IMG/VR virus record: IMGVR_UViG_3300043419_001406
Coordinates: 1 to 51,894 of that record
Reading direction: 5' to 3' (one strand)
Origin: a virus
Lineage: Duplodnaviria > Caudoviricetes
Length of the DNA: 51,894 nucleotides
In this document: positions 22,773-46,441 of the stretch, one piece after another
Numbering within the stretch: the stretch's first letter is position 1
Layout of the letters: every line of letters starts with the position of its first letter
The notes under the pieces: generated by a model
The model's input: the letters and a program-made list of their open reading frames with translations, nothing else
Told to the model about the DNA's origin: nothing
Database searches by the model: none
Program-made: the position numbers and the translations under genes

Positions 22773-23708
22773 ATGGAAGACGAAGATATCTCATCCCTGA
22801 TAAGCCAAATGGCGTCTCAGGGCCCGACTCAGTACGGAGCCACTTCGTCTGCCGTGCCCGGCAGGCAGCCTCGGCCGGCGCCGGTAAGTTTTGACGTCGC
22901 TAGGCAGATGTACGACGACGACTCGATGGCTCTGGCCGCTGTTTACGACACCAGCGGACGTGCCTCCGCGGCGCAACAGGCATATCTGGATCAGCAAAGG
23001 AAGATGCAGGACCCGAACTTTCGGGCTCAGCAGTTCTACATGAGCACGGGCAACTTGGCCGGAGCGATCCAGATAGGTAAGTCAAAAGGTTCGGCCCTGT
23101 TCAAGATGGGGTCCGAGATCAACATGGGTAGGGCAGGAACCTTCATGATGGCTCCTCAAGGCGAAATGGAGGCCAAGACGCCCGACGGCAGGTCGATCAG
23201 AATACCGGCATACATGGTGGCCGCAAAGAACGGCATCAACGTCCTTCCGTTCACGGGTGGGGACGAAAACGCGGACGCTTACAAGAGCACGATCATGAAC
23301 GCCGAGAGGGCATTCAGCCTGCTCGATGAGCTAGAGGATCTGTATAATGACAGCGGATACATCGGAACGATGTCGCCCACCGCCCGCGCCGCAAAAGCCG
23401 TCCAAATCGAGTCAATGCTGACTCCGCTTGTCCTCCAGACGCTCTCCGGAACAAAGAGCCTAGCTAGCACATCCGAGAAAGAGCTTGAGCTCATTCAGGG
23501 CGGAGTGCCTAGGGCTGCCAGCTCCATGATGTGGAATCGAAGGTCCAACGAGATCCTGAAGTTGCGCAAACTGAGGACCGATATTCAGGGCGTAATTTAT
23601 CGCTCATCCAAGCTCAATGGTATTGAATTGATCCCGAAGAAGCGCCAATCTTCTGGCGCCGGTGGGGCGGCCCAGACCGTCTCCATTCCCGGAGTCATAC
23701 CTGAATAA
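22773..23708 (+). CDS. Putative ejection protein
   Basis: TAATG-coupled to the giant gene; helical-bundle C-terminus. Confidence 0.55.
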   Translation: MEDEDISSLISQMASQGPTQYGATSSAVPGRQPRPAPVSFDVARQMYDDDSMALAAVYDTSGRASAAQQAYLDQQRKMQDPNFRAQQFYMSTGNLAGAIQIGKSKGSALFKMGSEINMGRAGTFMMAPQGEMEAKTPDGRSIRIPAYMVAAKNGINVLPFTGGDENADAYKSTIMNAERAFSLLDELEDLYNDSGYIGTMSPTARAAKAVQIESMLTPLVLQTLSGTKSLASTSEKELELIQGGVPRAASSMMWNRRSNEILKLRKLRTDIQGVIYRSSKLNGIELIPKKRQSSGAGGAAQTVSIPGVIPE

Positions 23709-26700
23709 TGGAACCTACCGAACCTACCCAACCGCAAACTCCAGAAGACAGGGACGCCCAGATAAAGCGAGACATCATCGCCGGGCTTCAGTCTGGAGGA
23801 ATGGACTTAAGGGCCGCGCCTGCTTTCAATTTTGAGGAAGAGGAGAAGCCCGACGTCGCGGCTCAGACCGATCCGTCGTTGCTCACCGGCAAGGACATCT
23901 ATGAGTACATGCAGATGAACCGAAAGGCCCGGTTCTCTCATGACGAGATGGGCAGGAAGTCGTTCAGGATGATGATGGAGTACATGGACACCAAGAAGTC
24001 CGACTTCATGGGGTCAGCCGAAAACGCCTTAAGCACGATGGTTGAGGAGCTTGGCGGTCTGGCCGATGCTCCGCTGAATCCCGTAAAGTTCGCCGCCAGC
24101 ACGGCTGAAGGAGCCGCGAAGGGCATACAAGACATGTACGGCATCTTCGCCCAATCTGAAGATCCGGGAAGCTGGGGCTTCAAGCTGAAGAGCTATTTCA
24201 TGCGTCTTGCCGGAAAGGACGACGGAGACGTCGACTCGCAGATACGTCAATTCCATGAGGCCCGCGATTTCAATAATCGCTCTTACGAGCACATGGAAGG
24301 CAAGGGGACGATCCTCGGTGATTACATGCCGGAAGGCTGGAGGAAGACCTACGAAGGCCTCGTCGATTCAAAGTTCGCCACGGCCATGTCCTATGCCGTG
24401 CTCGACATACCGGAATGGTTTTTCTCTGCCGGATCCTCCACGCCGTCCACCGCGCTCAAGCTAGCCGCAACCGGAGCCGCCAAGAGCAGGCAGGCAACTT
24501 GGGCGGCTAGGGCCGTCGAGCGCCTAGGCGGATATGGAACTAATCTATTAGGCAAGAACTTGGACTTGGCAGCCGGCAAGTCGCTCGAAGCCGCCGGAAC
24601 AATCATCAGGGCCCCTTTCAAGGCCATCTACGGATCGTCTGCCGCCGCCGCACAGCTTGCTGGCGACTATGCCGGCAACGCCGTCCGCAACGCCTCCACG
24701 GCAGCCGCCGTAGAGATGGGCGCCGAGATAGTCGGCAACGGCATCAGGCACCCGGCCATGGGCTTCATGCGAAGCATCGGCCTTGAAGCTCTTGGCGAGC
24801 TGGCCCAGACCGCCGGAGCCGACATCGTCGACCGCGCGCTCGGCAAGGCCATGGTCAAGCCGGACGCGATCGGAATGACGACCCTTGAGCGCCTTGCTTC
24901 CGGAACCGCCCGCGGAGCCGAGACCATGTCCCGCGAGGCTCAGATGCTCGCCGTCGGTCTCAACGCTTCCGTCGGCTGGTCTACCAGCATGTCCAGCTCC
25001 GCCCTCAAGGCCATGTTCAGGGACGGCCTCATTGGCGCTGGCATCGGATACTACAACTCGCGCGAAGAAGGCGCCGGTGCCGGCGTAGGCATGGGTGTCG
25101 CTTGGGGCGGCCTTTCTGGAACCGTCCGCCACATGGGCGCGTACACTCGCTTCCAGCATCAAGACCAGCTGCTCGTCGACAATTTCAAGGGCTACGGCAT
25201 CGAGGCGTTCCGCCGGGTCCTAGGCACCACGGGCTACGAAAGCGCGAAGAGGTTCACCGAGCACGTCGAGAGCTTCGGAGATCTCCGTACGTCCGCCATC
25301 GAAATGGCGCACCTTCAGACGCTCATAGCTCACGAGGGCAACCTCATGGGCGTCGGTAACGTCAATTTCTACTTCGGCGACGTCTCCAAGAACCCGTCAG
25401 AACTGATGCAGGTTCTTGTCGACATGAAGATGCCGGCCAGCGAGATCGTGAAGACGATCGAGGGGGTGAAGAATAACCCGGGCATGATGGCAGACTTCAA
25501 GGACGTCAACAACGCCAACAAGAAGGTCCTGATACTCAACAGCGAGCAGTACAGGCCGACCACGGGCAGGCATGAAGTAGCCCACCTGCTCCTCAGATCT
25601 GTCGCGGAAGCCAACGGGGACATGGAGCTCATCGGCGATGCCGCAGGGAATAAGTTCAAGATCTTCAGGCCTAACTACCTGCTGAATCTTCTTGGCGCAT
25701 CCAAGGACATGGGCGCCATGCCGGACAAGGCGTGGAACGCCATGATACAGTCGTACACCGCGCTCTACGCCATGGCAACAGAAGGCCTCGACGAGGCTGG
25801 CGCCAAGGCTAGGGGCATGCAGATGGCGAATGCCGTCGAGACATATCGCGAGGCCTACAACAATGGCCAACTCAAGCTTCAAGACCCGGACGTAGCTTAT
25901 TTCGTAGCTCAAATCTCTAGGGTGGCCGAGGAAGCCTTCGCTTACTATCAGGGCGGACTCAGCAACGTTCTCCCCGTCGACCAATACACAAAGGACCCTG
26001 CCGCTAGGAATATGCTGAGGGCTTGGGCCGAAAACAGGGCCGCCCGCAAGAACAGCCTGATCATGGCCGACCTTGAGCTGGCTGGCGTCGAGATCCGGTC
26101 TAGGCTCACCAATCCGGACGGCTCTCCCAAGCTTTTCAGCGATCAAAAGGACGCTCACGGCAATCCCATCCCTGTCTTCGACTCCTTCCTTTTCGACGAC
26201 GGCAAGATGCTCCGCACTCCGGGCATGGACTCGTGGATCGACATGGTCATGCGTCAGGCCTACTCCAAGGGCGAAGTGCTCACCTCTACGATGGATCCGT
26301 TCCGTCAGGAGGCTTTGGCAAAGTCTGCCGGCAAGACTCATCTGTTCAGCTCTGTAGCCGGTGGCGGCATGAGGCTTAAGTCTCCCAAGGAGCTGGACGA
26401 GATGTCCAGCGAGCAGGCCAAAAAGATATTGGGCGCCGCCGGATCGGTTCCGGAAGACGTCCGTCCCTTCGTGGAGGTGGACCAAGAGGGCGCCACCAAG
26501 ATAAAGCTGGAGTCCATCGGAGCCGAGGCGCTCGAAGCCATCAGGCAGTCAGGAGCGTTCACGAAGCAGGAGTGGGATGCCATCGCCGGCATGATCAACA
26601 TCGTCCAGCGCAACCGGCAGGGCTCGATGCACAACAATGTGCTGAACGCCACGCTTCTCGCCCACACGATGCAGGTTCGCAAGGGCGCCAGCGTCATCCG

Positions 26701-29700
26701 CCTTACCGGCAAGGATGTCCCCGTCACCTACAGGTCGTTCGTCCCTCTCAGCGTTGAGGTCTACGTCAAGACCCATGACGCCCAAGGCAACCCGCTCAGG
26801 AGCCCTAAGGGCGGAGTGCTCATCCACTCTCTGGACATCGCGGCCGAGAACCGCAGGCTCCAGCGCGTATTCAAGAGGGCCGACGTCCAGCAGCTCTTCG
26901 GCGGAGACTTTGATAAGTTCGTCAAGACCTTCAACGCATACGTCATTAATCAGTCAGGCCTCAACGGAGCTAGGGTTCCGACGGCAGACCTTCTAAGGCC
27001 TATCTACGGCCCAGATGCCGAACGAGTCCGAGACATCCTGTATGAGGCTTTTGGCGGAAGGAAGACCAAGGATTCGGCTTGGATCAATGAGCCGGGCAAC
27101 GGATACAGGGGCGGAGCAGACGACCCCAACAGGCCGTTCTTCACCATGCGGTTCGACACGATGGCTGACATCCAAGTTCAGCCCACCGCTTGGAACCCCT
27201 ATTCTCGCGTCCCGTTCTTCCCGTACATCCACAACGTGGCGTACGAAGGAATCACGAAGAACTTCCAGCTTTCTGGATTCGCCGCCAGCCCGCTCGCCAA
27301 CGGAGGCATGATGCTCCGCAACCGGCAGGGCTTCGAGATATACGAAAGCAAGAAGGGCTATACCCTTTTCGATCCGTTCGGCATCAAGGTCGGCGTGTTC
27401 AAGACAGCCGCCAAGGCCATGAAGAAGGCGGCCAAGGACGCCGGCGAGCTAGACGAAGCCGACACCATCCCGGGCAACTCCACCTTCCATACGCCAGAGG
27501 GACCGTCCGAGATGGAGCCCTCGGCTTACCTGTCCAGCACCATGATGCTTGGCGGAAGGTCCGGCCAGATTGCGGCAAAGCTTTCGGCAGGCCGTAGCGC
27601 CCGCGGCATGAGCCCTGTCGAATATGTCGCGGCCCTTGCTAGGACCAACCCGAAGGCCAGCTTTGATGCCAGCCCTGTAAGCTCTTCGTCTTCTCCGAAC
27701 GTATTTCACCCGACCAACAACGCCGGGGTCGGGCTAGTCAACCTTCCGCCTATCGTTGCCCCAGACGGCACCGTCATCATCGACAAGGCCGTTCCGAAAA
27801 AGTTCATCAGGATGGATGAGGCCTTCGGCTCCGCGGCCCTTAATCTGGATGGCATAGACATACCTGCCGAGCAGGCCATCCTCAGCGCCGACGGAACGAC
27901 GCCTACTGCCATGCCGGGCGGAGACATGATCAATATCGCCATGTCTTTCAGCCCTGCACATGTCAGGGGGCTGGTCTCGCTTCATGGCCTAGACTTCGCG
28001 AATGCCGCATTTTCAAACAGGGCTGCAACCAGCCTTGTCGTGGCTACCGCCGTAAGGAACGGATCAATACCCATCCCAAGCACCTCCGGCGCCGGCAACG
28101 CTAGCCACGCCATGGCGCTTGCGTCTCTGATGGGGCAGAGGGATGCAAGCGGAACGAGCATCCATGAGGGCTATGTGGATGATTTCGTCTCAAAGAAGCA
28201 GATAGATGTCTTGGGCGACATGGCCACAAAGGTTGCTGGCGGCAACGTGGGCGCATACGACCTAGATAAAATAGGAAATTATAAAGACCAGAAACCGAAT
28301 CCGGCATTCCTTAAGTCGGCATTGTCCATAAGGGCCACATTTGGTACGCTTGATTGGGCGAAGGGAATCGTAAAGTCCGTCCAATCCGGCAAGACCCCGA
28401 GCACGGCTCAAGTGGCAGCGGCCCGCGCCATTCTCTCGGCCGTCGAGGGCAAGGCGACCCAGACGGGATCGCCGGCTCGCATGCAGCTCACTAGGGTCGC
28501 AAACCTAGACTTCGCGAGGGCCTACACGGAAGCGAAGATGGTCTATGGCACCGAGCAGAATGCTCCTCTAGCTGGAGGCGCCGCCGGAGGACAATGGATA
28601 TTTAGCGCTCCGGATAATCCTGACCATGTGATCATGTTCAATGACGCCATGGTCGACCTGTCGGACGTGGACCCAAGTGTATCTTCGTATCAGGCTGCGC
28701 TTGTTGTAAGGGAAATAGAGGCCCATCACGCAAAGTTCATGCAGGCCGTCAAAGCCTCTGGCAGCAAGATTCCCGTCTTTGATGAAGGCTCTGTCAGGAC
28801 TTCTTGGATTTCCGGACTTAATGATCTCATCCCGGGCCTGTCAGATGCCTTCACGGACATAATCATAAACCCGAAACGATCCCCTAGGCCTTCCGCAAGG
28901 GTTCAGACGTTCTTGGACGCATGGCGCGACTCCGCCAATAGGACGGCATCTAACGGAGGCATATTCAAGAAGACCGTAATCGGAAAGTTCGGGACGAATG
29001 GGAAGCTGGAGCTAGCGAAGACCGGATCAAAGATCGGCTTTGCTTGGATGTCTCTGGACAATGTGAATGATCCTGACGTGGATAACGTGCTCACGCACAG
29101 GTCTATCTACGAGGGCATAGAGGACGCCATAAACAGGCATGCGGTAGGAGACCCGAATGCCATTGTAGACGCCGCGGTTCTGTACGGAGTGATAAGCTCC
29201 TTGACCTCTGATGGGAATCCGTTCTTCCACCTTATAAAGCCGACGTATGAAAGGACGCTAGCCGGTGGAGTAAAAGACACGTTCAACAGGACCACCTTCT
29301 CCTCGGTCAGGGACCAGAGATACGGCAAATACAACACCTCAGCAGGGTATCCTTCTAGGCCCTACAGCAAGCCGGCAACAAGCATCTATGACCTTCCCGC
29401 GTCGAGGGCTTATGTCACGAAGCGGTCTACAAAGGCTTTGAAGGCTGCCGACGCTTCGGCGCCAATGTATCTGGAGGCGTCCGTCAATTCGGCAGACCCT
29501 TCGAGATACAGGTCGGTAGCAAGGGACAACGCCATAATAGGGTCCTCCATATCTCCGATAGTCGTAAGGACCAAGGGGACCAACCCCGTTCTTCAGGGCG
29601 GAGCGGCGAGCATGGTGGTTCATTCTAAGTCGGCGTCCGTCATGTGGTACGCTGGAACGAAGAACCCCGGGCACATGACGATGATCCCCGAGTCCCTAGG

Positions 29701-32700
29701 GGCCGATAATCTCATAACCGGCGGGACTGTGATGGACCCTGCCGGACAGACCTCCAGCCCGGCGTTTCTTTCGATCGCCATGGAGTCCATGGACGCCGCA
29801 GGAAACTTCGACTTCTCCAAGAAGATAGCCCGCGTAGACAAGGATGTCGGCGAGTGGCTGGGCATGTATTCCAATCTCGGAAACAACTCCCGCAACTTCG
29901 TAGACCAGATCACGAAGAGCATCCGCGAAGGGCTGGATCAAGCCGCCGGAGATACGGACAAGGTAGGATTGGTGTACGCCAGCCTCACTAAGGCCCTGAT
30001 CGACGTCGGGGTTTCCCACGATCAGGCCATGTTCGCCGAAAGGATGATCATAGAGCGGATCAAGCTTCAGGATGCCGTCCGGTCCTCCGGCGTCGGCTCC
30101 GCCGAAGCGCTGAACTCTCTGGCATCCATATCTGACGCCATCTTGCAGAGCGAAGAAGCTCGCGCCGGTGGTCCTAGGATAGGAGGCCTTTCAAAGAATA
30201 AGATCGAGTCGTACACCGCGATGCTCAAGGAGTACCGGAAGACCGGAGAGTTTCAGCTCGGGTCCAAGGAGGTAGCCAAGGGCAAGACCATCGAAGGCGA
30301 CAATCTGCTGATGCTCTCCGGAAGGAAAGCAGAGGCCTATCTGTCCAAGGAGCGCAAGGAAATGCTCATCGCCATGGGGCTGATGGGCAAGCTCAAGGAC
30401 TCCGCCGGCAACATCCATACCTACTTCGAGATATCGGACGCCCGCGCAAAGCTGAACACCGCTACCTTCGCCAACGGCCTAGCGGGAGTCCTGACCGAAG
30501 GACTTCCCGACGCCGAAGCCGCCATCGAAGGCGCGCTCCTGTCCCGCATAGGCAGGGCAAATACTGTCGACCTTCAGTCGCTCATAGACAATTTCAACTC
30601 GCGCAACCTCAAGCTCAAGGACCTGCTGATTCATGACGAGCTGTACGCTCTCTACCCTCAGCTTCCCGAGATGAAGGTCACCTGCACCCGTGGGCTGGGC
30701 GCCTCGTTCAATCCAGCCGGAGACAAAGGCTTCCAAATAGGCGTGGATAACCTGCTCAGGCAAGAATACGCGTCCCGACTCGATATCGACTCGTCGTCCG
30801 CTAGGGCTGGCGAAGGCATGGGCCATGAAGGTCATGGCGAGTTTCCTTCCTACGAGGAGCTCCTGAGGGACACCTTGCTGCATGAGGTCCAGCATGCCAT
30901 CCAAAATGCCGAAGATTGGAGGGATATAGCCTTCCAAGCCGACGCCGGAATCAGGTCAATGACGACGGATCCGACGGCTCCCGTGTTCTCGGACGCCCAG
31001 AATCCGTCCGGCTATCTGACCCCCTTCTATGTCGGAGCCGCCAAGGCTCTTGGGTCCGACGAGAACATAGGCATCATGGGCCCGTTCGAAGACGACGGAA
31101 CCCTTAGCTCAGACGTCGTCAGGATCCTCAAGAAGCACTTCGCCGATCATGACAAGCTTGCCAACGTGGTCATCCGCAACACCGGAGCCGCAGGCATCCG
31201 CGAAAGCATCGGCTACGCCGGCACGGATGACGTCGTAAGGGCGATCAAGGCCATAATCGAATCGCCTTTGGCCAAGACGCTCGTCGCCGACGAGATACCC
31301 TCCGTCGTCAGGATAGCCGAGAGGTACGCCACGGCCATAGACCTGTTCGAGTTCGCCCTGTCCAACAGGGCTTCTGAGTTCGATGATACGGCCCGGGCCA
31401 ACATGGCCGCCAAGCTTAGGGCCAACAGGGTCGCCGTCATGAACATGCGGGCCGCCGCCATGGCCTCCCTTGAGCGCGTCAAGGAAGGTTCAGATCCTCT
31501 GGTCGAGGCTTCCGCCTTGGCCGGAGTGGTCCGCGACCTCCAGCCCAGCATGATCATAAAGGACCCGTCGCTGTCCATCCTCGCGAAGGACGTCGTCGGC
31601 AACATGGACTACCTGACGTACGTCCAAGAGGTCGCCGTGAGGCCGCTCACTAGGTCCCTTAGCAAGCTGGCCCTCGCCGCCCATAACGGCCCCTCGTCCC
31701 TCTCTCCGCTTCAGGCCAACCTCAGGATCGCCGAGGTGGTCCATGGACTCATGGGGGCCCTGTACATGCAGGACCCGATGGAGATATCCGCCCGCGAGAC
31801 CGAGGCTAGGTCCAAGATGAGCCTTGAGCAGCTCGCCAAGCTTCCTCGTAAGACGACCGAAGACATCGTCAAGATGCCTGAAGCCCTTCGCATCGGCTTG
31901 TTCGCTAGGTCTGTCGCCATGTCCGACATGGGCATGGAGATGAGTCCCGGCATGTTCGACGAGTTCAAGAATGACAACTTGCTCATGATCGGTGGTTCCA
32001 AGGGCAGCCAGAAGCTCTCCTCGGAAGTGCTCACCAGCCAATCCGCCGTCTACGAGCTGGGCCTCAGGTACATGGCTAGGGCGTCCTTGCTCAGCCACCT
32101 GATAAAGCCCGACGACATCATCAAGCGAGCCAACGAGCTGGCATACAAGAGCCGCGGCTGGAAGATAACCCCGGAGGGCAAGGCGGTCTACGTCGTGTCC
32201 GAGGGCTTGCTTTCCATCAGCAGGGAAGGCGTGTCCGGAAGGGATGTGGTCTTCAACCTGATGAACACCTTGGATACTACCGCGGGACAGCCGCGTAGGG
32301 ACAGGGCTATCAGGAACGATACCGATCAGCGCATACAAAGGATCGAGGCCGGCAAGAACAAGGATGCTAGGAGCAGGGCCATGTCTGGCATCGTTGGCCC
32401 CAACCCGGAAAACCTCAGCCTTCAGGATATCGAGAAGATGGGCTCGGCGTTCGGCAGGGTCGCCGACGCAGAATACTACAGGGACAATGATTCGAGCGGA
32501 GACGCCGGAGTGCTGTTCGCGGCCGGCCTTTCCAAGGACGGAACGTCCGTCACCATTGAAGACATAGCGGACGCCATCGGCGCCGCCATCAAGGTTGAGT
32601 CCGAGATGACCATGGGAAGCCCGGCCCTTGACGCCGTGATGTCCAGCAACTTCCCCGACTTCTTCCTCGGCGAGAACTTGGTCCAGATGCTACGCACCGC

Positions 32701-35700: not shown

Positions 35701-38700
35701 TTCCGGCGAAGTGATGACTGCCGATAGGGGCGGTATCGCGATGGCCTTGATGACGCACCCCGAGATGGAGTCATATCTGTCCGTCGTAAGGTCTCAGGGC
35801 GTTCCCGTAACCACGTCGTTCAAGCCGGCAAGGCATCCTAGGCTTACCAAGGACATAGTCAGGACCCACATCAGGAAGTCCATCGCCGCTAGGCTCAGGG
35901 ACTCGGGCACCGACGTGATCGAAATCCAGCCGGCAAGCATGTCCCTCTCATACAGGGCTCCGAGCGCCGCGATGCTGATAGGCATGCGCGGAATGGATAC
36001 CATCAAGGAGGCGGTCAAGGATTGGAACGGCTCCGGCATCAGGTCGATAGACCGAAGCATACAGTACAAGACAGGCACCCAGAAAGGAAACTACATAGCG
36101 GCTGGCGAAAAAGGCCTGTCGTTGGTGGAGGGCATGTATGGAGACATCGGAGCCATGGCCGAATCAAGGCCGTCCAGAGGCTTCTCTTGGACCCGCGCCG
36201 CGAACGGAGACATATTGGTGAACATATCCGGAGACCACCTCGGCTATAAGCTGGATGCACGAGGCCAAGGAAAGAAGATGGGCTTCGGATTCTCCCTGAC
36301 AGAAGGCGTCGGCTTCGATGGCACTAGGGGAATATTCATACCCGCCAAGGGCGGAGTACAGTCCGCGATACGCCACATCATGGGCACCTACGGGCACTTC
36401 ATGGGAGACGCCTACGACACGGGGTCTTCATCCATGAAGGCGGCTTACATCAGGGCCGATGAGAGGATGGGCGGAAGGATCCACAGGTCTAGGATAGATG
36501 GAGCCGGAAAGGACATCGCCATAGCTGCCAAGGAAGTGGTGAGCCCGTCGGTCGGACCCAAGACAGACCTGACGAGGGCGGCCAGCAGGCTGGCCTTGGG
36601 TCAGTCGGCCGGATATGTGACCATCAGGATACCTGCCAACTCCAACATGGAGACGATAAGGCAGATGCTTCTGACGGCTCACATGGATCCTACCATCACC
36701 CCCAACTACGGGCTGGCGGCGAATACGGGACGATTGGATAACATCACGCTGCACGAAATGTCCGTAGGTAACGGCGGCATAATGAGCCCCATTCAGGATC
36801 AGTCGGGCTCATACAGCAGGAGCATCAAGCACAAGATAAGGACCGAGGGTAATAGCATCTTGGACTCCGATCAAGACGCCAAGTCGCTGATAGACAGCCT
36901 GACAAGGATCAAGTCCCAGATCGATCCGCACGTCGTCGAAGACATCGAGCTTCTCGTGGCCAAGATAGTCGGAAAAGAAAGCGGCTACTTCCTGCCGGAT
37001 GCCGAAAGGAAGCTGGCGCTGGACGGCGATACCGGAATGGCGATAGCCTCCCTGTTCCCCGGCCGCGAAGACCTGCTGAAGTACTCTTGGGACGCCAAGG
37101 CTCGGCATGGCATCAAGGTCTGGAAGCGCACCGGCCCCAAGGGTGACGCCAACTTCAGGGCGCATGTCGTTCAGTTCGACACGCCCGTTTCCATCAGCCC
37201 GGAAGGCGGACTACAGATATCCAAGACGGCCTTCGCCTTCAAGACGGCGGCCGAAGCCGAGCAGTATGCCAATCAGGTGTCCCGCATGATGAGCGGCGCC
37301 GAAATGGTAAAAGCCCTCGCCGACGGAGACATTGAAGTCGTCGACAGGCCTGACCTCGCCAAAGCCAATGATGACTTCATAGGCGACGTCGAGCCCCGGA
37401 AGCTTTCCATGCTCGGAGAGGAAGGCATCGTGCAGTCCGAAAACGGCTATACCGTCGGAGACCTCGACTCGGTGTTCGACAAGAAGACCGCCTCTCAGAT
37501 GTCGAAGGTGCTCGGCTCTAGGAAGCACGTCAGGTTCAAGTCCAGCAACTTGCTCATGATAGGCTCTAGGAGCATGGACGAGCTGGAGTCCTTGGTTAAG
37601 AGCAAGCTGAACTTCGGCCTTCCCAAGGGCCCGATCAGGTTCGCCTCCAAGGCCATGAACGCAATCTCTAGGGGCTTGGATAACCACAAGCGTCACAGGG
37701 ATGTCATGAGCGGAGCGGATTGGTTCGCTTTCATGAAGACGAACGGCGTCTCCGGCGAAGAAATCCGTCAGTCCGGCCTAGGCCAGCTGTTCTCCACCTC
37801 GCTTGAAACGCCCTTGTCTAGGATGGATGTCGCCGAGTTCTTGGCGGCCATGATGCCCAATCTGGTCAAGAATGACTTCAAGTTCAGCCCCTACCAGAGG
37901 GCGATCGAGGCCATGACGATGGACATTCCTTCGTCCCCCCAGAATCCGGCCCCTGCCTTCTTGCAGTCCTCCGGATGGCATGTGCCTTACATCCAGAACG
38001 CCGCGATCCAGACGGTCGCCAACATGAAGATGAGCATAGACGCCGTCCGTGGACCGGTTTCAGAGCTCAGCAACAGGCTCAAGGCGGCGGTCGACGCCAA
38101 CAATGAACCGGCCGTCGCGAAACTTAAAGCCGCCATCAACGTCATAAGCGACGCCCTGATATCGGCCGCCGGCCGACTTGGAATCCCTGAGGACAGGGTG
38201 GTCGACATGATGCGCGGAGGACTTGGCATGGCCGACGTCGTCGAAGCCATGAACGAGCAGCTCAAGCAAAGGCTTCGTGAGGCCACCAGCGAGACCTCGA
38301 CTTCCAGCGACATAGCAAAATTGGCCAACGACCTTGACTTCACGGGAGTCGAGTCCGTCAGGCAGAAGTACAACGACGAGGTGGCCAAGATGATGAAGGA
38401 CGCCGCCCTGCTGGAGGCCCTGTCTGGCGTCGCCCCTGAGATATACGCCCCCTTGAGGCTCATGAAGCATGGCTGGATCGGCGCTACAAATCCGTCCTTG
38501 GGAGCCCTTTCCACCACAATCGGCGGAAGCGGAGAAATACCTAAGAACATGTGGTTCGGCTCCGGATACACGGAGCTGATGGGCCAGACGCTCGGAACCC
38601 GAAAGGAAGGATGGGCCACTTACTCGACCGGCAAGCAGGAAACCGGAACGAACACCGCCGTCCAATACTACAGCCCCGCCATTCGGGATCAGATAAGTCA

Positions 38701-41700
38701 GTACATCGCGGACCTCGGAGAGCAGGCTCTTGCCGCCGAACAGGCCGGCGACCTTCAAAAAGCCGACGCTGCTAGGAAGTTGCGAGATGCGGCGAAGCGA
38801 GTCGCAACCGTGAGGGAAGCCCTGTCGGGGGCCCCTTATGGCTCCGCTGGAAGCCACTTCGGCAACTACCTTCCGTCTGGAGATGTCACTCCTGCCGGTG
38901 GTGAGTATGAGATCGGTCACTACAGGTACTCGCTCAACCTAGCCCTGTCCGGACTTTCCGTGCCGCTGTTCGACAAGCCGGAAGCCCTGCTGATAGGCGC
39001 GAAGGAAGCCGGCCTGCCCATGGAGGTCAGGCTCGATAAGCTCGGATACCCCGTGATGATGCTCGAAGAGTTCCAATCCGACCTGTTCCAGAGGTACGGC
39101 GGAACCGGCGTCGTCGAGGAGGCTGATGCGTTCCTTCCTGCCAGCGCAGAAGAGGCCGTCAGGATGCAGTCGGTCCCGGCAATCAAGGAGAAGAAGGAAA
39201 GGATGGCCAGCCTCACGGCCATCAGGGACAACATGGCCAAGCACCTGCTTGAATCCCTGATGGATGTCACGGACGACAAGTCCTTCACCGACCTCACGAT
39301 AAGGCTTCAGCTCAACAACCTAGATTTGATGAACAAGATGTTCATCACGGCGAGCTGCCCGGGCCTGTTCCGCGGAACGGGAAGGTATGTCAAGACCCCC
39401 GAAACGCTGATAGCTTCGATCAAGAAGCAGGCCGGCTTCACCCTGCCCGAGCGCATGCTCGTGGTCGAGCCGGACGTCGAGCTCATCAAGATAGGCATGG
39501 GCGGAGAGCTTTCCGAAGCCTCATGGCAGAAGGTTTCCGACAGGATGATCCGGAACATGAGGTCCGCCGAGGACGTCCATGTCCTGTTCCGCGAGGGCGG
39601 CATGAACATGGATCAGATCGTTCAGGCCGTAATGAGGCACCCGCGCAGGAGCCTTGAACAGTCGATGAGGTCCATATCCCAGCTGATGGCCAAGGCCAAC
39701 ACGGACATGCTCTCTGAGAATTACCTCCTGAAAATCCTGCCCAACGTCGAAAACGCCCCCAATGGAGACCTTAAGCAGCTCTTGTTGGGCCTCGCCGAAA
39801 GGATACAACAGCGTGGAACCTCAGGAGGAGCAGAAGGGTCGGCGAACCTTCTCGCCGCCCAGCTGGCCGCCATGGTGCTTCTGGACGAGAAGTACGTCTT
39901 GGACATATCGAAGGCGGTGCAGGACGGATCCAAGATCGACTATGAAGCCGTCGCTAGGAGGACCCTTGAGACCATCAGGGCCAAGTTCGCCGACAGCCGT
40001 TCGTTCAACGGAAAGACCGTCCTGACGGCCTTTGAGGTCATGCTCATGCAGGCTTCTGAGCCCAAGCCGTTCCTCGGCGCGGAAAATAACTTCTCCGCTG
40101 GCACGGGAATAGGCCACGCCGAGCTCGGAAGCCTTATCGCTGCGGCTGAAATACCGGAAGCGGATCTGGCCGACGTCGAGAACATCTCCATCAACCAGCT
40201 CAACGAGTACCTCGGCCTCACGATGCGTCAGAGGGAAAGGATGGTCGGAGAGATAGCCGAATCGATATCCATGGGCGGAGACCTTTCCAAGAAGGCCATC
40301 TACATAAGCAGGGGCCCGAGCGTCGACGACGTCGGACCGCAGAGGTCTTACGTCACCATACGCACCACGAACTTGGAGCCCATGCAGCTCGCGAACAGGG
40401 TCGTGCTTGAGATGCTCAAGGCCAAGAAGGAAGGCCGTGCGATAAGGTCGATAGTCGTCGCGGACTACAACCGGTACTCCGGAACTCAGGCCGGCGCGTT
40501 CGTCCGATCCATATCGGAGCTGTTCGTCGCCATGGCCAAGAAGGAGTCCCTTACTCCTGAGATCGATAAGCTCGGATCCGAGATAGCGGAGCTGTCCAAG
40601 GGCGTACCCGAGATAGGGTCGCTCAAGGGCGCGCAGAAGCACGGGTCGAGCGCCGTCCTCCCGAACAGCCTCCCTCTGGTGGACATCAACGGATACAAGT
40701 CGGCCCACCTGTCCATGGCTGTCATCGATTCGATGAACCACGGGATGAGGGGCGTAGGCCTTTACGACGCCTCGTTCCAGCTGGAGCGCGGTCACGGACT
40801 CGATAATGATCCGACCACCTACATAGGCTTCGGTAAGAACAACAGGTATGTGTTCGCCCTAGATGACAAGCTGGCGTTCAAGCCGATCCAAGCGCTCCTC
40901 TACACCTATGAGAAGCTCTTGGGCGAATACAACGGTCAGGACGGGCCTCATGGAGGCTTCCTCTATAGGCTGGCCAACTTGGACGAAGAAGACGTGATCC
41001 GCCTCAAGTCCGGCAGCACGATAGATCATAACGGCGTCACGGGCACCCTCGGCAAGCACATGGCCATCTTCATGAAGGACATGAGCGAAAGGATCCCGGA
41101 CGGAATGGTGGAAACCATCAAGACGTCCTATGACACCAACGTGTCCTTCGAGATGGGAGGAAGGCTTCTCAGCAGGTTCGAGCAAAGCATCGACAAGAGC
41201 CTCAAGCGCAACCTGACGTCATCCCTTTCGGGCCCGGCGTTCGTAGGAGGCAAGAAGGTCGAGAACGTGCTCTGGGAGGGCGGAACCAAGTTCAACGCCA
41301 ACGCGATGAAGGATTCCGTGCTAACCCTGATGCCGGCCCAAGCGCACGGTAGCGCCGGCTGGGGCTATCTGACCAACTACGGACTTCCCGGATGGAAAGT
41401 TGACCTCATGATGACGGGCGCGTCCCGTGCATTCAGGGACAACTACAGCCTCGACGCCTTCGACAGGCCTAAGTTCGAGGTCAGGGGGAGCAACATGGTC
41501 CTTCTGGATCCGAAGACCGGAAGGGAGCTCGTCACGGTCGATGTCACCAGCGAGCAAGGCATGCGGATATTCCGCGAGAAGTACCTGCAAGCCAGCAAGT
41601 ATCGCGGAGGAAATTGGGCGATAAGGGCGTTCATGAAGGAGTGGGGAGCCGCCGGCGCCTACATAGACACGACCGTCCTTGCGGACCTTCCTAATTACCG

Positions 41701-43018
41701 AGGCGAAGTCTCCGGCTACAAGCTGGACGTCGATAGCGGAATGCCCAGCTACATATCCAACCTGTCCGCGCTGAGCAGGCAGAACGACGATCCTCGTGTT
41801 TCCGCGATCATAAGGGCCACCCAAGAAGGCAAGCTCAGCCCTGAAGGCTTCAATAATCCTCCCGGATTCGGAGGCTTCAGGATTTCGCCCCAAGAAGGCG
41901 GCATGATAATCGGTCAGGCCGGAGGCTCCTATAATCCGGAAACCCCGATATCGTCGTCGGGCAACTACATAAACGCCGAAAGCGAGCCGGGCGCCGGATC
42001 ATTCAGGGGCCAGCAGCTTTCCGCCGAAAGGTCCGAAGCTCAGCCCACGGCGTCGTCGCTCACCCAAAATGGGGCGGTTCATCCGGCCGTATACGCCGCC
42101 GTGCTCGGCGGAGGAGTTGCCACCCCCGAGGCCGTGGCCAGCATGATAATCAAGATGAGGAACACCACCGTCACCACGATGGTCCATACCCCCGAGATGC
42201 GGACCAAGGAGCACGAGCTCGCGTTCAGGACGAAGGTGTCGTCTGGCATACACCTGCTGATGGCTTCCGGCCGGAAGGCTGAGCCCGGCAAGCCTGTCGA
42301 CCCGAACATCATCTCCGCCTTGGCCCAGCTTGCTGAAAAAGTCGAGGCCATGGGCCAGCTGAGCAACAGGCGCAGGTCTGAAAGCGTCGAAGACACCCGA
42401 TACAGGGACCTGAGGGATAACACCCCCATCACCTACGCGGACAACCTGATGGTCGACAGGTCGCAGCTGCCTAAGCTCCCTATGGCCGAGAAGCCCGCTG
42501 AGATCGATCCCAACGACAAGCGCTTCAGGATCTACGACAGGGACAAGGCCGTTGGGCTGCTCAAGGCCGGCCACTCGGATCTTGAGGTCGCGAAGCACAT
42601 GGGCGTCTCTAGGACCTTGATCGTACTCCTAAGGGCCAAAGAAGGCATAGCTCCCCTGCCGGAAGGCAGTCCGAGCAAGAGAGACCGCCGGGCGGTTCAT
42701 AAGCTTGGCGAAGAAGAAATCGTCAAGCGGATGGATGCCGTCGTCGAAGGCCTGAAGTCCAATCAGGGCACGGCGACCGAGCTCATCAGGAAGACCAACC
42801 TGACTGATTCCAAGCGCCAGCATGGCGGGTGGAAGAAGGTAAGGGATTATGTCGAGAGCAAGGGCGTTCCTAAGCCCAAGCGTCGCAGCCCAAAGAAGGT
42901 CGATCCTTCGCCTTCTGACAGCCTCAGCGACCCGACCCATGAAGCTCAGGTCAAGAAGCCTTCCAACCAATCAGATCTCATGAAACGCGAACAACTAGAA
43001 GGGGACATGAATGGATAA
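23708..43018 (+). CDS. Giant polyvalent (LPD-type) internal virion protein, 6436 aa
   Basis: Uninterrupted 19.3-kb ORF; glycine-zipper hydrophobic N-region; HEVAH (aa 622); LPD23-like FEISD...LLIHDELYALYPQL...LLHEVQHAIQ (aa 2392); EEFQSD module; C-terminal HTH. Confidence 0.85.
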   Translation: MEPTEPTQPQTPEDRDAQIKRDIIAGLQSGGMDLRAAPAFNFEEEEKPDVAAQTDPSLLTGKDIYEYMQMNRKARFSHDEMGRKSFRMMMEYMDTKKSDFMGSAENALSTMVEELGGLADAPLNPVKFAASTAEGAAKGIQDMYGIFAQSEDPGSWGFKLKSYFMRLAGKDDGDVDSQIRQFHEARDFNNRSYEHMEGKGTILGDYMPEGWRKTYEGLVDSKFATAMSYAVLDIPEWFFSAGSSTPSTALKLAATGAAKSRQATWAARAVERLGGYGTNLLGKNLDLAAGKSLEAAGTIIRAPFKAIYGSSAAAAQLAGDYAGNAVRNASTAAAVEMGAEIVGNGIRHPAMGFMRSIGLEALGELAQTAGADIVDRALGKAMVKPDAIGMTTLERLASGTARGAETMSREAQMLAVGLNASVGWSTSMSSSALKAMFRDGLIGAGIGYYNSREEGAGAGVGMGVAWGGLSGTVRHMGAYTRFQHQDQLLVDNFKGYGIEAFRRVLGTTGYESAKRFTEHVESFGDLRTSAIEMAHLQTLIAHEGNLMGVGNVNFYFGDVSKNPSELMQVLVDMKMPASEIVKTIEGVKNNPGMMADFKDVNNANKKVLILNSEQYRPTTGRHEVAHLLLRSVAEANGDMELIGDAAGNKFKIFRPNYLLNLLGASKDMGAMPDKAWNAMIQSYTALYAMATEGLDEAGAKARGMQMANAVETYREAYNNGQLKLQDPDVAYFVAQISRVAEEAFAYYQGGLSNVLPVDQYTKDPAARNMLRAWAENRAARKNSLIMADLELAGVEIRSRLTNPDGSPKLFSDQKDAHGNPIPVFDSFLFDDGKMLRTPGMDSWIDMVMRQAYSKGEVLTSTMDPFRQEALAKSAGKTHLFSSVAGGGMRLKSPKELDEMSSEQAKKILGAAGSVPEDVRPFVEVDQEGATKIKLESIGAEALEAIRQSGAFTKQEWDAIAGMINIVQRNRQGSMHNNVLNATLLAHTMQVRKGASVIRLTGKDVPVTYRSFVPLSVEVYVKTHDAQGNPLRSPKGGVLIHSLDIAAENRRLQRVFKRADVQQLFGGDFDKFVKTFNAYVINQSGLNGARVPTADLLRPIYGPDAERVRDILYEAFGGRKTKDSAWINEPGNGYRGGADDPNRPFFTMRFDTMADIQVQPTAWNPYSRVPFFPYIHNVAYEGITKNFQLSGFAASPLANGGMMLRNRQGFEIYESKKGYTLFDPFGIKVGVFKTAAKAMKKAAKDAGELDEADTIPGNSTFHTPEGPSEMEPSAYLSSTMMLGGRSGQIAAKLSAGRSARGMSPVEYVAALARTNPKASFDASPVSSSSSPNVFHPTNNAGVGLVNLPPIVAPDGTVIIDKAVPKKFIRMDEAFGSAALNLDGIDIPAEQAILSADGTTPTAMPGGDMINIAMSFSPAHVRGLVSLHGLDFANAAFSNRAATSLVVATAVRNGSIPIPSTSGAGNASHAMALASLMGQRDASGTSIHEGYVDDFVSKKQIDVLGDMATKVAGGNVGAYDLDKIGNYKDQKPNPAFLKSALSIRATFGTLDWAKGIVKSVQSGKTPSTAQVAAARAILSAVEGKATQTGSPARMQLTRVANLDFARAYTEAKMVYGTEQNAPLAGGAAGGQWIFSAPDNPDHVIMFNDAMVDLSDVDPSVSSYQAALVVREIEAHHAKFMQAVKASGSKIPVFDEGSVRTSWISGLNDLIPGLSDAFTDIIINPKRSPRPSARVQTFLDAWRDSANRTASNGGIFKKTVIGKFGTNGKLELAKTGSKIGFAWMSLDNVNDPDVDNVLTHRSIYEGIEDAINRHAVGDPNAIVDAAVLYGVISSLTSDGNPFFHLIKPTYERTLAGGVKDTFNRTTFSSVRDQRYGKYNTSAGYPSRPYSKPATSIYDLPASRAYVTKRSTKALKAADASAPMYLEASVNSADPSRYRSVARDNAIIGSSISPIVVRTKGTNPVLQGGAASMVVHSKSASVMWYAGTKNPGHMTMIPESLGADNLITGGTVMDPAGQTSSPAFLSIAMESMDAAGNFDFSKKIARVDKDVGEWLGMYSNLGNNSRNFVDQITKSIREGLDQAAGDTDKVGLVYASLTKALIDVGVSHDQAMFAERMIIERIKLQDAVRSSGVGSAEALNSLASISDAILQSEEARAGGPRIGGLSKNKIESYTAMLKEYRKTGEFQLGSKEVAKGKTIEGDNLLMLSGRKAEAYLSKERKEMLIAMGLMGKLKDSAGNIHTYFEISDARAKLNTATFANGLAGVLTEGLPDAEAAIEGALLSRIGRANTVDLQSLIDNFNSRNLKLKDLLIHDELYALYPQLPEMKVTCTRGLGASFNPAGDKGFQIGVDNLLRQEYASRLDIDSSSARAGEGMGHEGHGEFPSYEELLRDTLLHEVQHAIQNAEDWRDIAFQADAGIRSMTTDPTAPVFSDAQNPSGYLTPFYVGAAKALGSDENIGIMGPFEDDGTLSSDVVRILKKHFADHDKLANVVIRNTGAAGIRESIGYAGTDDVVRAIKAIIESPLAKTLVADEIPSVVRIAERYATAIDLFEFALSNRASEFDDTARANMAAKLRANRVAVMNMRAAAMASLERVKEGSDPLVEASALAGVVRDLQPSMIIKDPSLSILAKDVVGNMDYLTYVQEVAVRPLTRSLSKLALAAHNGPSSLSPLQANLRIAEVVHGLMGALYMQDPMEISARETEARSKMSLEQLAKLPRKTTEDIVKMPEALRIGLFARSVAMSDMGMEMSPGMFDEFKNDNLLMIGGSKGSQKLSSEVLTSQSAVYELGLRYMARASLLSHLIKPDDIIKRANELAYKSRGWKITPEGKAVYVVSEGLLSISREGVSGRDVVFNLMNTLDTTAGQPRRDRAIRNDTDQRIQRIEAGKNKDARSRAMSGIVGPNPENLSLQDIEKMGSAFGRVADAEYYRDNDSSGDAGVLFAAGLSKDGTSVTIEDIADAIGAAIKVESEMTMGSPALDAVMSSNFPDFFLGENLVQMLRTAGVDEQSILSSRADEISKSFANKRVSKSEVADLMAIMHDVPFADYANDVTNREQVLMSVGKLDEELPEKIRAAYFEDGDMGKFIRSTVHTILNSRTTSGDEPLKYMFDSDTALSGGSGIMRLHNVVTTVITQHWNMIEGLYNLTGNRSVAEKLLKRLTDRYPTARDVSPSFHSNRVVFQKSVTMAGGGIDRDTAANMMRKAFTNRLSKLLMALTPLAERVAELSRADETTATLKLLEHIYGKVIDETLQHVERMRMSADDSGGVISGYSALVGRHIGMGGGSYSITDKSRATFQKLAERTLGGTRVSRMSGTLPLVGLYGGATHLMRLSSRVDNVFMSTAGVALQGQGGFVSDSGRSSNLISNQTAGETELRLMLESRPDVTRILEESADLADEADLTAARLIVSKMGDMVTAGSEDMVENHAPMIVSVMRAHRRLRQMAKGVMAAIDTQGNYLGVGSQLRPSKMISYYGNVFLSDQTAALINKTIADDQVGMELTLHHLQDQREKATALLELMRSIEDQPGILQNFGTIMTESFGDTYHTAADVNNARRLTNLSTLRTYVPKDGEKRLVITSAHESLMSAAEEKDITILSGMDTTSMNSPAFASGRYAANDYTVSANLFGDMPGEPIGTALERTSSVLAKALDTSQMRDIQFADQVARTMRSFKGQTSMSYKQNSIGRSMIHVAGGGFGLYGAADQLSKSNDAKLRALGEALRSFDHEVGVDYETDLASSLLAGLMVPLLKRLSDRESLYDAKADIAFLVDAFSKDKANWSGNLDDFVLSCQNAMSRSNGIGIRRLGQYMSVRFSSADWQGMARAAGAVMFDRHISLGLATKFTADEIKAIRREYMKTLASNKADTPEYESYHRQRSQAGELPYTREVLLEEGQGLSKGTKISESKSALYAMNNLIEQVLGTSDHGSGSALFFAVLGGLTDHEGVKHSPAAIKTDDGWKVAPSGFSQNADSSARDIAYGSVTADEVFVEGPSGFSEASGASIYEKGSLFSSGEVMTADRGGIAMALMTHPEMESYLSVVRSQGVPVTTSFKPARHPRLTKDIVRTHIRKSIAARLRDSGTDVIEIQPASMSLSYRAPSAAMLIGMRGMDTIKEAVKDWNGSGIRSIDRSIQYKTGTQKGNYIAAGEKGLSLVEGMYGDIGAMAESRPSRGFSWTRAANGDILVNISGDHLGYKLDARGQGKKMGFGFSLTEGVGFDGTRGIFIPAKGGVQSAIRHIMGTYGHFMGDAYDTGSSSMKAAYIRADERMGGRIHRSRIDGAGKDIAIAAKEVVSPSVGPKTDLTRAASRLALGQSAGYVTIRIPANSNMETIRQMLLTAHMDPTITPNYGLAANTGRLDNITLHEMSVGNGGIMSPIQDQSGSYSRSIKHKIRTEGNSILDSDQDAKSLIDSLTRIKSQIDPHVVEDIELLVAKIVGKESGYFLPDAERKLALDGDTGMAIASLFPGREDLLKYSWDAKARHGIKVWKRTGPKGDANFRAHVVQFDTPVSISPEGGLQISKTAFAFKTAAEAEQYANQVSRMMSGAEMVKALADGDIEVVDRPDLAKANDDFIGDVEPRKLSMLGEEGIVQSENGYTVGDLDSVFDKKTASQMSKVLGSRKHVRFKSSNLLMIGSRSMDELESLVKSKLNFGLPKGPIRFASKAMNAISRGLDNHKRHRDVMSGADWFAFMKTNGVSGEEIRQSGLGQLFSTSLETPLSRMDVAEFLAAMMPNLVKNDFKFSPYQRAIEAMTMDIPSSPQNPAPAFLQSSGWHVPYIQNAAIQTVANMKMSIDAVRGPVSELSNRLKAAVDANNEPAVAKLKAAINVISDALISAAGRLGIPEDRVVDMMRGGLGMADVVEAMNEQLKQRLREATSETSTSSDIAKLANDLDFTGVESVRQKYNDEVAKMMKDAALLEALSGVAPEIYAPLRLMKHGWIGATNPSLGALSTTIGGSGEIPKNMWFGSGYTELMGQTLGTRKEGWATYSTGKQETGTNTAVQYYSPAIRDQISQYIADLGEQALAAEQAGDLQKADAARKLRDAAKRVATVREALSGAPYGSAGSHFGNYLPSGDVTPAGGEYEIGHYRYSLNLALSGLSVPLFDKPEALLIGAKEAGLPMEVRLDKLGYPVMMLEEFQSDLFQRYGGTGVVEEADAFLPASAEEAVRMQSVPAIKEKKERMASLTAIRDNMAKHLLESLMDVTDDKSFTDLTIRLQLNNLDLMNKMFITASCPGLFRGTGRYVKTPETLIASIKKQAGFTLPERMLVVEPDVELIKIGMGGELSEASWQKVSDRMIRNMRSAEDVHVLFREGGMNMDQIVQAVMRHPRRSLEQSMRSISQLMAKANTDMLSENYLLKILPNVENAPNGDLKQLLLGLAERIQQRGTSGGAEGSANLLAAQLAAMVLLDEKYVLDISKAVQDGSKIDYEAVARRTLETIRAKFADSRSFNGKTVLTAFEVMLMQASEPKPFLGAENNFSAGTGIGHAELGSLIAAAEIPEADLADVENISINQLNEYLGLTMRQRERMVGEIAESISMGGDLSKKAIYISRGPSVDDVGPQRSYVTIRTTNLEPMQLANRVVLEMLKAKKEGRAIRSIVVADYNRYSGTQAGAFVRSISELFVAMAKKESLTPEIDKLGSEIAELSKGVPEIGSLKGAQKHGSSAVLPNSLPLVDINGYKSAHLSMAVIDSMNHGMRGVGLYDASFQLERGHGLDNDPTTYIGFGKNNRYVFALDDKLAFKPIQALLYTYEKLLGEYNGQDGPHGGFLYRLANLDEEDVIRLKSGSTIDHNGVTGTLGKHMAIFMKDMSERIPDGMVETIKTSYDTNVSFEMGGRLLSRFEQSIDKSLKRNLTSSLSGPAFVGGKKVENVLWEGGTKFNANAMKDSVLTLMPAQAHGSAGWGYLTNYGLPGWKVDLMMTGASRAFRDNYSLDAFDRPKFEVRGSNMVLLDPKTGRELVTVDVTSEQGMRIFREKYLQASKYRGGNWAIRAFMKEWGAAGAYIDTTVLADLPNYRGEVSGYKLDVDSGMPSYISNLSALSRQNDDPRVSAIIRATQEGKLSPEGFNNPPGFGGFRISPQEGGMIIGQAGGSYNPETPISSSGNYINAESEPGAGSFRGQQLSAERSEAQPTASSLTQNGAVHPAVYAAVLGGGVATPEAVASMIIKMRNTTVTTMVHTPEMRTKEHELAFRTKVSSGIHLLMASGRKAEPGKPVDPNIISALAQLAEKVEAMGQLSNRRRSESVEDTRYRDLRDNTPITYADNLMVDRSQLPKLPMAEKPAEIDPNDKRFRIYDRDKAVGLLKAGHSDLEVAKHMGVSRTLIVLLRAKEGIAPLPEGSPSKRDRRAVHKLGEEEIVKRMDAVVEGLKSNQGTATELIRKTNLTDSKRQHGGWKKVRDYVESKGVPKPKRRSPKKVDPSPSDSLSDPTHEAQVKKPSNQSDLMKREQLEGDMNG

Positions 43019-45835: not shown

Positions 45836-45844
45836 GGTGGGAGA

Positions 45845-46350: not shown

Positions 46351-46366
46351 TGTGTGTGTTGGGAGA

Positions 46367-46441
46367 TGGAGGCGGGTGTGGGATTTGCACCCACGTTGGT
46401 CGGCTTTGCTGGCCGGGGCATAACTACTCTGCTAACCCGCC
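46367..46441 (-). tRNA. Atypical tRNA-Cys (GCA)
   Basis: GGCGGGTTAGCAGAGTAGTTATGCCCCGGCCAGCAAAGCCGACCAACGTGGGTGCAAATCCCACACCCGCCTCCA; U73 and CCA present, but A33. Confidence 0.75.

Follow-up and report, generated by a model that had tools for sequence, protein, structure and literature searches.

A giant phage protein with a motif kept at six aligned positions: a candidate polyprotein with processing sites

For the polyvalent proteins of phages, processing by their own metallopeptidase domains is proposed in passages of Iyer et al. 2017 (PMC5512222). Those passages give no recognition site, and the main text describes no junction motif of the kind reported here, the term 'cleavage site' being found only in the reference list. 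One such protein, gp47 of phage phi24B, is 2811 aa long and combines LPD5, LPD1 and LPD38 with a Muf-C peptidase; according to parts of a preprint (10.64898/2026.04.10.717836), it was detected in virions by mass spectrometry and is proposed to be an ejection protein. Here we analyze P0001, the product of a giant open reading frame (ORF) in the IMG/VR virus record IMGVR_UViG_3300043419_001406. The window, i.e. the whole stretch of DNA analyzed, is this one complete record of 51,894 bases. An earlier interpretation, drawn from the letters alone and referred to below as the sequence-only reading, had taken the same protein for a self-cleaving precursor, invoking the autoprocessing of polyvalent proteins; that precedent does exist, as a proposal. 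We propose that P0001 is a polyprotein with processing sites, to which we give a probability of about 0.5; the likeliest candidate protease is an embedded HExxH domain.

23708..43018, plus strand: giant ORF encoding P0001, 6436 aa

The ORF occupies 40% of the genome unit, as the sequence-only reading had it, and this figure holds on the unit of about 48.27 kb obtained after correction for the overlapping ends of the record.

The proposal is built on a short motif with the general form hydrophobic-[M/Q/S]-hydrophobic-small-G, which is written N-L-L-M-x-[G/S]-G-[R/S]-[K/R] in the phage of the window. The strict form LLM.[GS][GS] occurs four times in P0001, with the leading L at residues 2200, 2758, 4615 and 6183; these are the four strong copies listed by the sequence-only reading, and four of the five LLM tripeptides of the protein belong to them. 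Only 0.058 copies are expected from composition (Poisson probability of at least four, 4.5e-7). When P0001 was shuffled 2000 times, 1888 shuffles had no copy, 108 had one, 4 had two and none had three or more. A weight matrix was built from the five sites with a central Met (M-type) in ten close sequences. Among these 50 instances, the Met is present in 50 and a Gly three places on in 48, and flanking residues besides this Gly are conserved. The five M-type sites of P0001 score 19.6-31.9, and the next best spot in the protein scores 7.2. In a six-frame scan of the whole window, only the five M-type sites score above 8, the next best value being 7.4, and no score above 6.8 was found outside the giant ORF, indicating that the motif is confined to P0001. 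The enrichment assumed by the sequence-only reading is thus borne out, both against shuffled sequence and against the rest of the window.

The conservation of the motif was then followed in relatives. A search restricted to proteins of length similar to P0001 gave nine full-length homologues (6422-6459 aa, 53-56% identity), on contigs of about 26-49 kb. A deep HMMER search of 1.84 billion representatives, with residues 2151-2850 as query, gave 22 matches, 20 of them giants of 3639-6525 aa; the two remaining matches (194 and 629 aa) look like fragments, and both include the motif of site 3. Altogether, 28 other giants (3639-6525 aa, down to about 25% identity) align with P0001 over the full length. 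In a MAFFT alignment of the 29 giants, P0001 included, the motif recurs at six aligned positions (1187, 1280, 2202, 2760, 4617 and 6185 in P0001 numbering), so the homologous giants do keep it, a check that the sequence-only reading had suggested. Occurrences were counted with one permissive five-residue pattern, within 10 residues of the aligned position and in the rows having the region.

27257..27280, plus strand: site 1, residues 1184-1191, KNFQLSGF, central Q1187; 25 of 27 rows, conserved in all clades
27536..27562, plus strand: site 2, residues 1277-1285, STMMLGGRS, central M1280; 14 of 27 rows, kept in 9 of 9 close homologues
30299..30328, plus strand: site 3, residues 2198-2207, DNLLMLSGRK, central M2202; 27 of 29 rows
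31973..32002, plus strand: site 4, residues 2756-2765, DNLLMIGGSK, central M2760; 19 of 29 rows
37544..37570, plus strand: site 5, residues 4613-4621, SNLLMIGSR, central M4617; 19 of 28 rows
42248..42277, plus strand: site 6, residues 6181-6190, IHLLMASGRK, central M6185; 23 of 28 rows

By this count, 127 of the 168 site-by-protein cells match, versus 509 of 11,600 random 20-residue windows (4.4%). Some of the misses are variants outside the pattern, such as LNMIGG or MQSIGG at site 2760. At site 4, NDNLLMIGGSKGS is unchanged across the ten close sequences save for one N-to-T change in homologue P0010. In P0017, which is about 24-27% identical to P0001 over aligned fragments, N[LMF]M[VILA]G has six matches versus 0.04 expected (0 of 300 shuffles), all six at homologous sites. 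The weaker copies put forward by the sequence-only reading fared unequally: STMMLGGRS is site 2, QVLMSVGK (residue 3051) was rejected, not being conserved even in the nine close homologues, and DNLMVD (residue 6245), which lacks the Gly, is conserved only within the clade of the window. A candidate seventh site at residue 5901 was rejected, as it is not kept outside this clade.

The central residue of the motif varies by lineage. Clade I, that of the window, has Met at all sites except for Gln at 1187. Clade II (P0013 and P0014) uses Met or Gln, with Gln at site 1187, clade III (5600-6100 aa) uses Met, and clade IV has Ser at most of its sites. The wording thus changes at most sites together, as would be expected if a single factor reads all of them, and we consider it very probable that selection maintains the motif and that a common factor reads it. 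One may ask instead whether the motif lacks any shared function and reflects chance, composition, start codons left over from genes that were once separate, or translation initiated internally. The invariant Met at the five M-type sites of the close clade (50/50) would suit start codons, and Shine-Dalgarno-like sequences are missing both at the motif sites and at real gene starts, for which reason this signal cannot separate the two. However, chance falls far short of explaining the enrichment, conservation extends to the flanking residues and the Gly, and elsewhere Gln or Ser replaces Met at the same sites, which excludes internal start codons. A motif devoid of shared function is therefore highly improbable.

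The six sites divide every full-length member into the same seven segments, with order and sizes conserved (1100-1241, 93-112, 621-935, 475-564, 1757-2144 and 1365-1574 aa, then a tail of 33-260 aa). The sequence-only reading had proposed six fragments; their sizes fit the spacing of the sites, but site 1187 had been missed and brings the number of pieces to seven. It had also described the motif as bracketing modules. This is true of the second HExxH domain, which sits exactly between sites 2202 and 2760, and of the tail, which follows 6185, but not of the EEFQSD element, which lies about 500 residues past 4617. Several sites coincide with changes in conservation. Among the ten close sequences, block identity is 66-85% over residues 751-1250 and 22-36% from residue 1251, around site 1280. 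At the boundaries themselves, it is 74% before site 2 and 28% after it, and 30% before site 3 and 56% after it, with 68 insertion columns directly upstream of site 3. The contrast in conservation between motif and flanks is striking only at site 4 (99.5th percentile), the other sites lying between 12.9 and 86.4.

The tail that follows site 6 is clade-specific, with about 250 aa in the clade of the window and 33-51 aa in 13 of the 28 rows reaching the site. The sequence-only reading called it a helix-turn-helix (HTH) tail; a variable tail does follow site 6, but HTH_23 is matched only below threshold.

42545..42622, plus strand: weak helix-turn-helix-like stretch in the tail, residues 6280-6305; HTH_23 E = 0.02, below the curated cut-off

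Homologue P0029 has a different tail of 178 aa, with a sub-threshold HTH_28 match (E = 9.8e-4) at residues 3988-4018. Judging from these sequence matches, two clades may each have acquired a DNA-binding cargo at this position, independently of one another.

Two HExxH motifs, each with a glutamate (E623 and E2393) that the sequence-only reading had singled out, are embedded in P0001. Both motifs are conserved family-wide.

25571..25585, plus strand: first HExxH motif, HEVAH, residues 622-626; found in 25 of 29 giants, 5 of which write it HExxxH
30881..30913, plus strand: second HExxH motif, HEVQHAIQNAE, residues 2392-2402; present in 29 of 29 giants
30308..30937, plus strand: alpha/beta domain with the second HExxH motif, candidate zincin-like peptidase, residues ~2201-2410, from models

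The H, E, Q and H of the second motif are invariant in all 26 rows of alignment A3. E2402, a candidate for the third metal ligand, is found in 10 of 10 rows of alignment A1 and in the 18 rows of alignment A2 (clade III included), and is replaced by other residues in clade IV. Comparison of the first and second HExxH regions by hhalign gave a probability of 2.6%, i.e. no detectable kinship between them.

The AlphaFold2 model of residues 2151-2850 (17 homologues) has a mean predicted local distance difference test (pLDDT) value of 56.5, with values below 50 at residues 2180-2201 and 2724-2776, the latter stretch covering site 4. A second model, restricted to residues 2190-2460, has a mean pLDDT of 72.2 and a predicted template modelling score of 0.70. 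Comparison of the domain with BFVD by Foldseek gave six matches at E <= 0.001 (9.4e-7 to 8.5e-4; template modelling score by query 0.27-0.37). Those with names are phage proteins, 'Large polyvalent protein associated domain-containing protein' and 'LPD38'. In a VIA wide search of 48,161 PDB representatives, about 30 of the 50 rows listed are, judging from their titles, HExxH zinc peptidases, all at low Z. These rows include minigluzincins and M1 and M13 enzymes; among the entries are jannalysin, abylysin, selecase, ECE-1, PepO, M1 aminopeptidases, Wss1, SprT, ArdC, HtpX, BlaR1 and BepA. The peptidase alignments span model residues ~60-220, the HExxH helix included. The second HExxH domain as modelled is consistent with a small zincin, the weak scores falling short of proof. 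The sequence-only reading had named an LPD23/metallopeptidase unit here: its likeness to LPD phage proteins and, weakly, to zincins is retained, but Pfam detects no LPD23. The 700-residue model gave only generic helical-bundle rows against PDB by Foldseek and in VIA wide, and the ESM Atlas entry of homologue P0016 gave only low-score, unnamed or unrelated rows. A complex predicted from residues 2206-2470, zinc and a site-4 peptide (2738-2790) scored 0.02 versus a mark of 0.32; run without controls, it is evidence neither way.

From these results, the following scheme can be proposed. P0001 would be a phage protein of the polyvalent kind, made as a precursor of about 700 kDa from the late structural operon; the phage itself would be podovirus-like, with a genome of about 48 kb. 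All six strand-plus-glycine motifs would be recognized by a single reader common to them, for which a protease is the most likely candidate. A protease is favored because the sites are at module boundaries, because one HExxH module is bracketed by two of them, because new tails are appended exactly after the last one, and because self-processing is proposed for the class in the passages of PMC5512222 mentioned above. Cuts at the six sites would give seven pieces of about 130, 10, 97, 61, 201, 170 and 28 kDa. The likeliest protease would be one of the two embedded HExxH domains; sites 3 and 4 directly border the second, an arrangement seen in self-excising viral proteases. The precursor would be packaged in the virion and delivered into the host, as suggested by the position of the gene, the near-absence of Cys and the example of phi24B gp47. 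Within this scheme, proteolysis itself, the scissile bond, the cutting domain and the timing of cutting are what we infer. That the motif is a cleavage site for a protease, whichever it is, seems fairly probable; that an embedded HExxH domain does the cutting is put forward tentatively. As for the bond, a hydrophobic residue with Gly three places later recalls sites cut after Gly-Gly, and a zincin more typically cuts before a hydrophobic residue, here for example the Met or the residue after it.

A number of observations weigh against processing by an embedded protease. As modelled, site 3 (L-M-L-S at 2202) opens the HExxH domain as its first beta-strand (pLDDT ~69) and is integrated in that domain, not a free linker. 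Site 1 lies within a highly conserved stretch free of indels, with flanks 74-76% identical, as inside a folded domain. The linker position expected for the motif by the sequence-only reading is supported at site 4, in its stretch of pLDDT below 50, but not at sites 3 and 1. The TOP-IDP disorder proxy, which is composition-based, was mixed over the sites, not raised around site 1 or site 4, and not decisive. The domain model found nothing at E <= 0.001 in PDB by Foldseek; in the VIA wide search, every chain stayed below Z 5, with 3.7 as the highest value. By sequence, no Pfam, PHROG or NCBIfam peptidase or LPD family matches P0001. In clade IV, the first HExxH is written HExxxH and the Glu following the second is lost, but these changes coincide with the Ser wording in one lineage event and are silent on which HExxH domain reads the sites; the correlation between dialect and HExxH form rests on very few independent events. 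Finally, a virion location of P0001 is suggested only by gene position, and the N4 virion RNA polymerase, which has such a peptidase domain, is reported as packaged unprocessed in passages of PMC5512222.

The motif could also be recognized without being cut, a beta-strand with a glycine turn docking six times on one partner by strand addition. Candidate partners are the portal or core, a chaperone, a neighboring domain of the same chain, or the tail channel at ejection, and docking would order the packing or threading of the intact 6436-aa chain. The strand at site 3, the indel-free block at site 1 and the unprocessed N4 protein all speak for this explanation, and the concerted dialects suit any co-evolving reader, whether a protease or not. 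Moreover, the giant gene was never found split. This holds for the HMMER relatives and for a search in which no shorter or split homologue of residues 1-1400 was seen among 8000 candidates scored. It also holds for related IMG/VR records retrieved by a pattern scan with the family-wide motif EEFQSD, since 4 of 4 have uninterrupted frames of 5654-6460 aa, one of the records having terminal repeats. However, four of the six sites are junctions where the sequence is variable or rich in indels, or is modelled with low confidence, and the clade-specific tail is appended exactly after the last site, which is typical of release sites. No docking partner was identified, and the two conserved HExxH motifs would then need another role. 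We regard docking without cleavage as less likely than the processing scheme.

Cleavage at the motif could also be the work of a separate enzyme, either a protease of the host or an unrecognised prohead protease of the phage; the HExxH domains would then act on host targets, for example the cell wall or defence proteins. Head-maturation proteases of the T4 and phiKZ type do cut packaged internal proteins at short motifs, and many late ORFs of the window are without annotation. A cell-wall role is proposed for the peptidase domain of phi24B in parts of the preprint cited above (10.64898/2026.04.10.717836). Against a separate enzyme, all other ORFs lack the motif, those for capsid and portal and those in scaffold position among them, no protease family was detected in 20 other ORFs of the window by Pfam or in 10 by PHROGs, and the dialects change together with the giant protein. 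On balance, a separate protease is improbable. Three further mechanisms were considered and rejected: self-cleavage by an Asn lyase, as Asn is missing at some sites; sortase-like or prepilin-like signals, as the residues do not fit across clades; and a cysteine protease inside P0001, as the protein has only three Cys and three homologues have none.

With respect to composition, P0001 has 3 Cys in 6436 aa and its homologues have 0-20; Cys scarcity may be a general trait of proteins travelling through the tail or periplasm. P0001 has no strong hydrophobic segment, only one weak stretch at residues 6130-6148. A Gly/Ala-rich conserved stretch at 24400-25150 (residues ~240-480) has many invariant glycines, again with no strong hydrophobic segment, and could be a glycine-zipper-like membrane-active region. 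In the unannotated segments, three patches are strictly conserved down to about 25% identity, EEFQSD..Q, GDHLGYK and YFLP..ER.L...GDTG.

39065..39082, plus strand: EEFQSD, residues 5120-5125, conserved family-wide, within segment 4621-6188
Residues 4175-4181 and 4427-4443 of P0001: the conserved patches besides EEFQSD

These patches look like active sites of enzymes. A DxDGD polymerase loop considered at residues 4438-4442 was rejected, as it is not conserved in the alignment consensus.

Searches of sequence families gave little. Among six segments of P0001 compared with Pfam, segments 1-4 had nothing at E <= 10, segment 5 had a noise-level match to Baculo_PEP_C (E = 10) and segment 6 had the sub-threshold HTH_23. 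Both halves of P0001 matched no Pfam family, and Pfam on four distant homologues gave only the sub-threshold HTH_28 of P0029. With PHROGs, segments 1-5 had no family at E <= 0.1 and the 248-aa tail had three sub-threshold matches (E = 0.011-0.052), none of the gp14/15/16 type. In NCBIfam, the six segments had sub-threshold matches only, and comparison of each half with PDB sequences by phmmer gave 0 matches at E <= 1. No match to residues 2001-3000 was found by tblastn in INPHARED (50,697 phage records), and a related-locus search of IMG/VR with one protein found nothing. In the literature, supplementary material aside, we found no description of the giant-protein family or of its junction motif.

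The ends of the record (1-3646 versus 48267-51894) overlap, giving a genome unit of about 48.27 kb. The repeated ends are 94.4% identical with 20 gaps, which is no clean terminal repeat; it looks like the assembly ran past one genome length into a strain variant. The IMG/VR class of the record is linear. On the plus strand, the late block runs from the large terminase (phrog_2) through an SU10-type portal, the major head protein (phrog_1328) and about 12 unannotated ORFs to the giant ORF, whose start shares one base with the stop of the preceding late-strand ORF (TAATG). The sequence-only reading had placed it at the end of an 'ejection-protein cluster', a label for which no annotation was found. 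Capsid and terminase are only 25-34% identical to those of LUZ24-like, phiM5-like and C75C1 podoviruses. The closest terminase is that of phage C75C1 (33.6% identity), and the large late genes of this phage (2770, 376 and 1344 aa) have no similarity to P0001, no HExxH and no motif.

Elsewhere in the window, the minus-strand early region (45116-50327) encodes an ERF recombinase, an IstB/DnaC-like ATPase, an HTH_36 protein and a PD-(D/E)XK nuclease. No polymerase or integrase was found among the ORFs scanned for families. A late ORF of 367 aa (15655-16758, plus strand) has a CBM_5_12 carbohydrate-binding module (E = 3.1e-6, above the curated cut-off) and is possibly a receptor-binding or tail-fibre protein for a chitin-like or peptidoglycan-like sugar. 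Late gene starts were inspected for Shine-Dalgarno-like sequences within 25 bases upstream, and 7 of 7 had none, which hints at a host or a translation mode with little Shine-Dalgarno use.

Late gene starts inspected: 6787, 8619, 12187, 21276, 22773, 23708, 43318

The processing scheme has consequences beyond this locus. It is possible, if less than probable, that a polyprotein family exists in double-stranded DNA phages, with precursors of 5600-6500 aa self-cut at six sites by their own zinc protease, a lineage-specific wording of the protease site (Met, Gln or Ser), and a last site used as docking point for appended cargo, such as an HTH regulator, to be released in the host. If so, the family would offer a natural set of mutually orthogonal protease/site pairs and a protein-delivery chassis in a 48-kb phage. 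The six sites, the two candidate catalytic glutamates and the dialects make a concrete hypothesis for polyvalent-protein processing that can be tested by mutation, the natural dialects predicting which protease variant should read which site. Confirmed cutting would establish the polyprotein strategy in a tailed phage, yield sequence-specific zinc proteases whose sites are short and defined, and give a view of how about 0.7 MDa of protein can be packed and delivered by a phage with a genome of about 48 kb. Were cutting refuted, the six-fold motif would still mark a recognition system in a family without annotated domain.

P0001 can finally be compared with known systems. Among polyvalent proteins, phi24B gp47, N4 virion RNA polymerase and P1 DdrB were used as the comparison set. 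Like them, P0001 is very large and multi-module, is encoded together with late or structural genes, in its case downstream of those for terminase, portal and capsid, and contains embedded peptidase-like HExxH domains, of which the second resembles LPD-containing phage proteins in BFVD. Unlike them, it has no LPD or other Pfam family detectable by sequence. It is more than twice as large as phi24B gp47 and takes up 40% of its genome. The large ORF of phi24B (2807 aa in HM208303.1, 29149-37572) has 2 Cys, compared with 3 in P0001, although the two proteins are unrelated. The six-fold motif is not enriched there (1 match versus 0.57 expected), which suggests, from this single control, that the motif is a feature of the P0001 family and not of polyvalent proteins at large.

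With the internal core of T7 (gp14/15/16), the likeness lies in the position of the gene, which follows those for capsid and tail in a late operon of podovirus-like layout, and in the total mass, which we estimate to be comparable. There is no sequence or PHROG similarity, one gene stands against three, and P0001 has no strong hydrophobic segments except for the weak stretch already mentioned. In head maturation, T4 gp21 cuts at L/I-x-E with capsid-targeting sequences, and phiKZ and SPN3US have a prohead protease. There too, a short consensus marks the places where internal or ejected proteins are cut while the particle assembles or afterwards. However, the motif is then common to many head proteins and the protease is a separate gene, whereas here the motif is confined to P0001 and no separate protease was recognized.

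Eukaryotic viruses have polyproteins with embedded proteases, such as picornavirus 3C and coronavirus Mpro; adenovirus sites read (M/L/I)-X-G-G|X, and those of African swine fever virus pp220 read G-G|X. P0001 resembles these systems in its short motif at module junctions, with position kept and wording drifting by lineage, and in a candidate protease module flanked by motif sites. As in the adenain-type consensus, a hydrophobic residue stands three places before Gly or Gly-Gly. It differs in belonging to a tailed double-stranded DNA phage, in having a candidate zinc enzyme instead of a Cys or Ser protease, with only three Cys in the whole chain, and in that its cleavage is hypothetical. Altogether, P0001 belongs with the phage polyvalent proteins by its architecture and one structural match, and would work most like a viral polyprotein.

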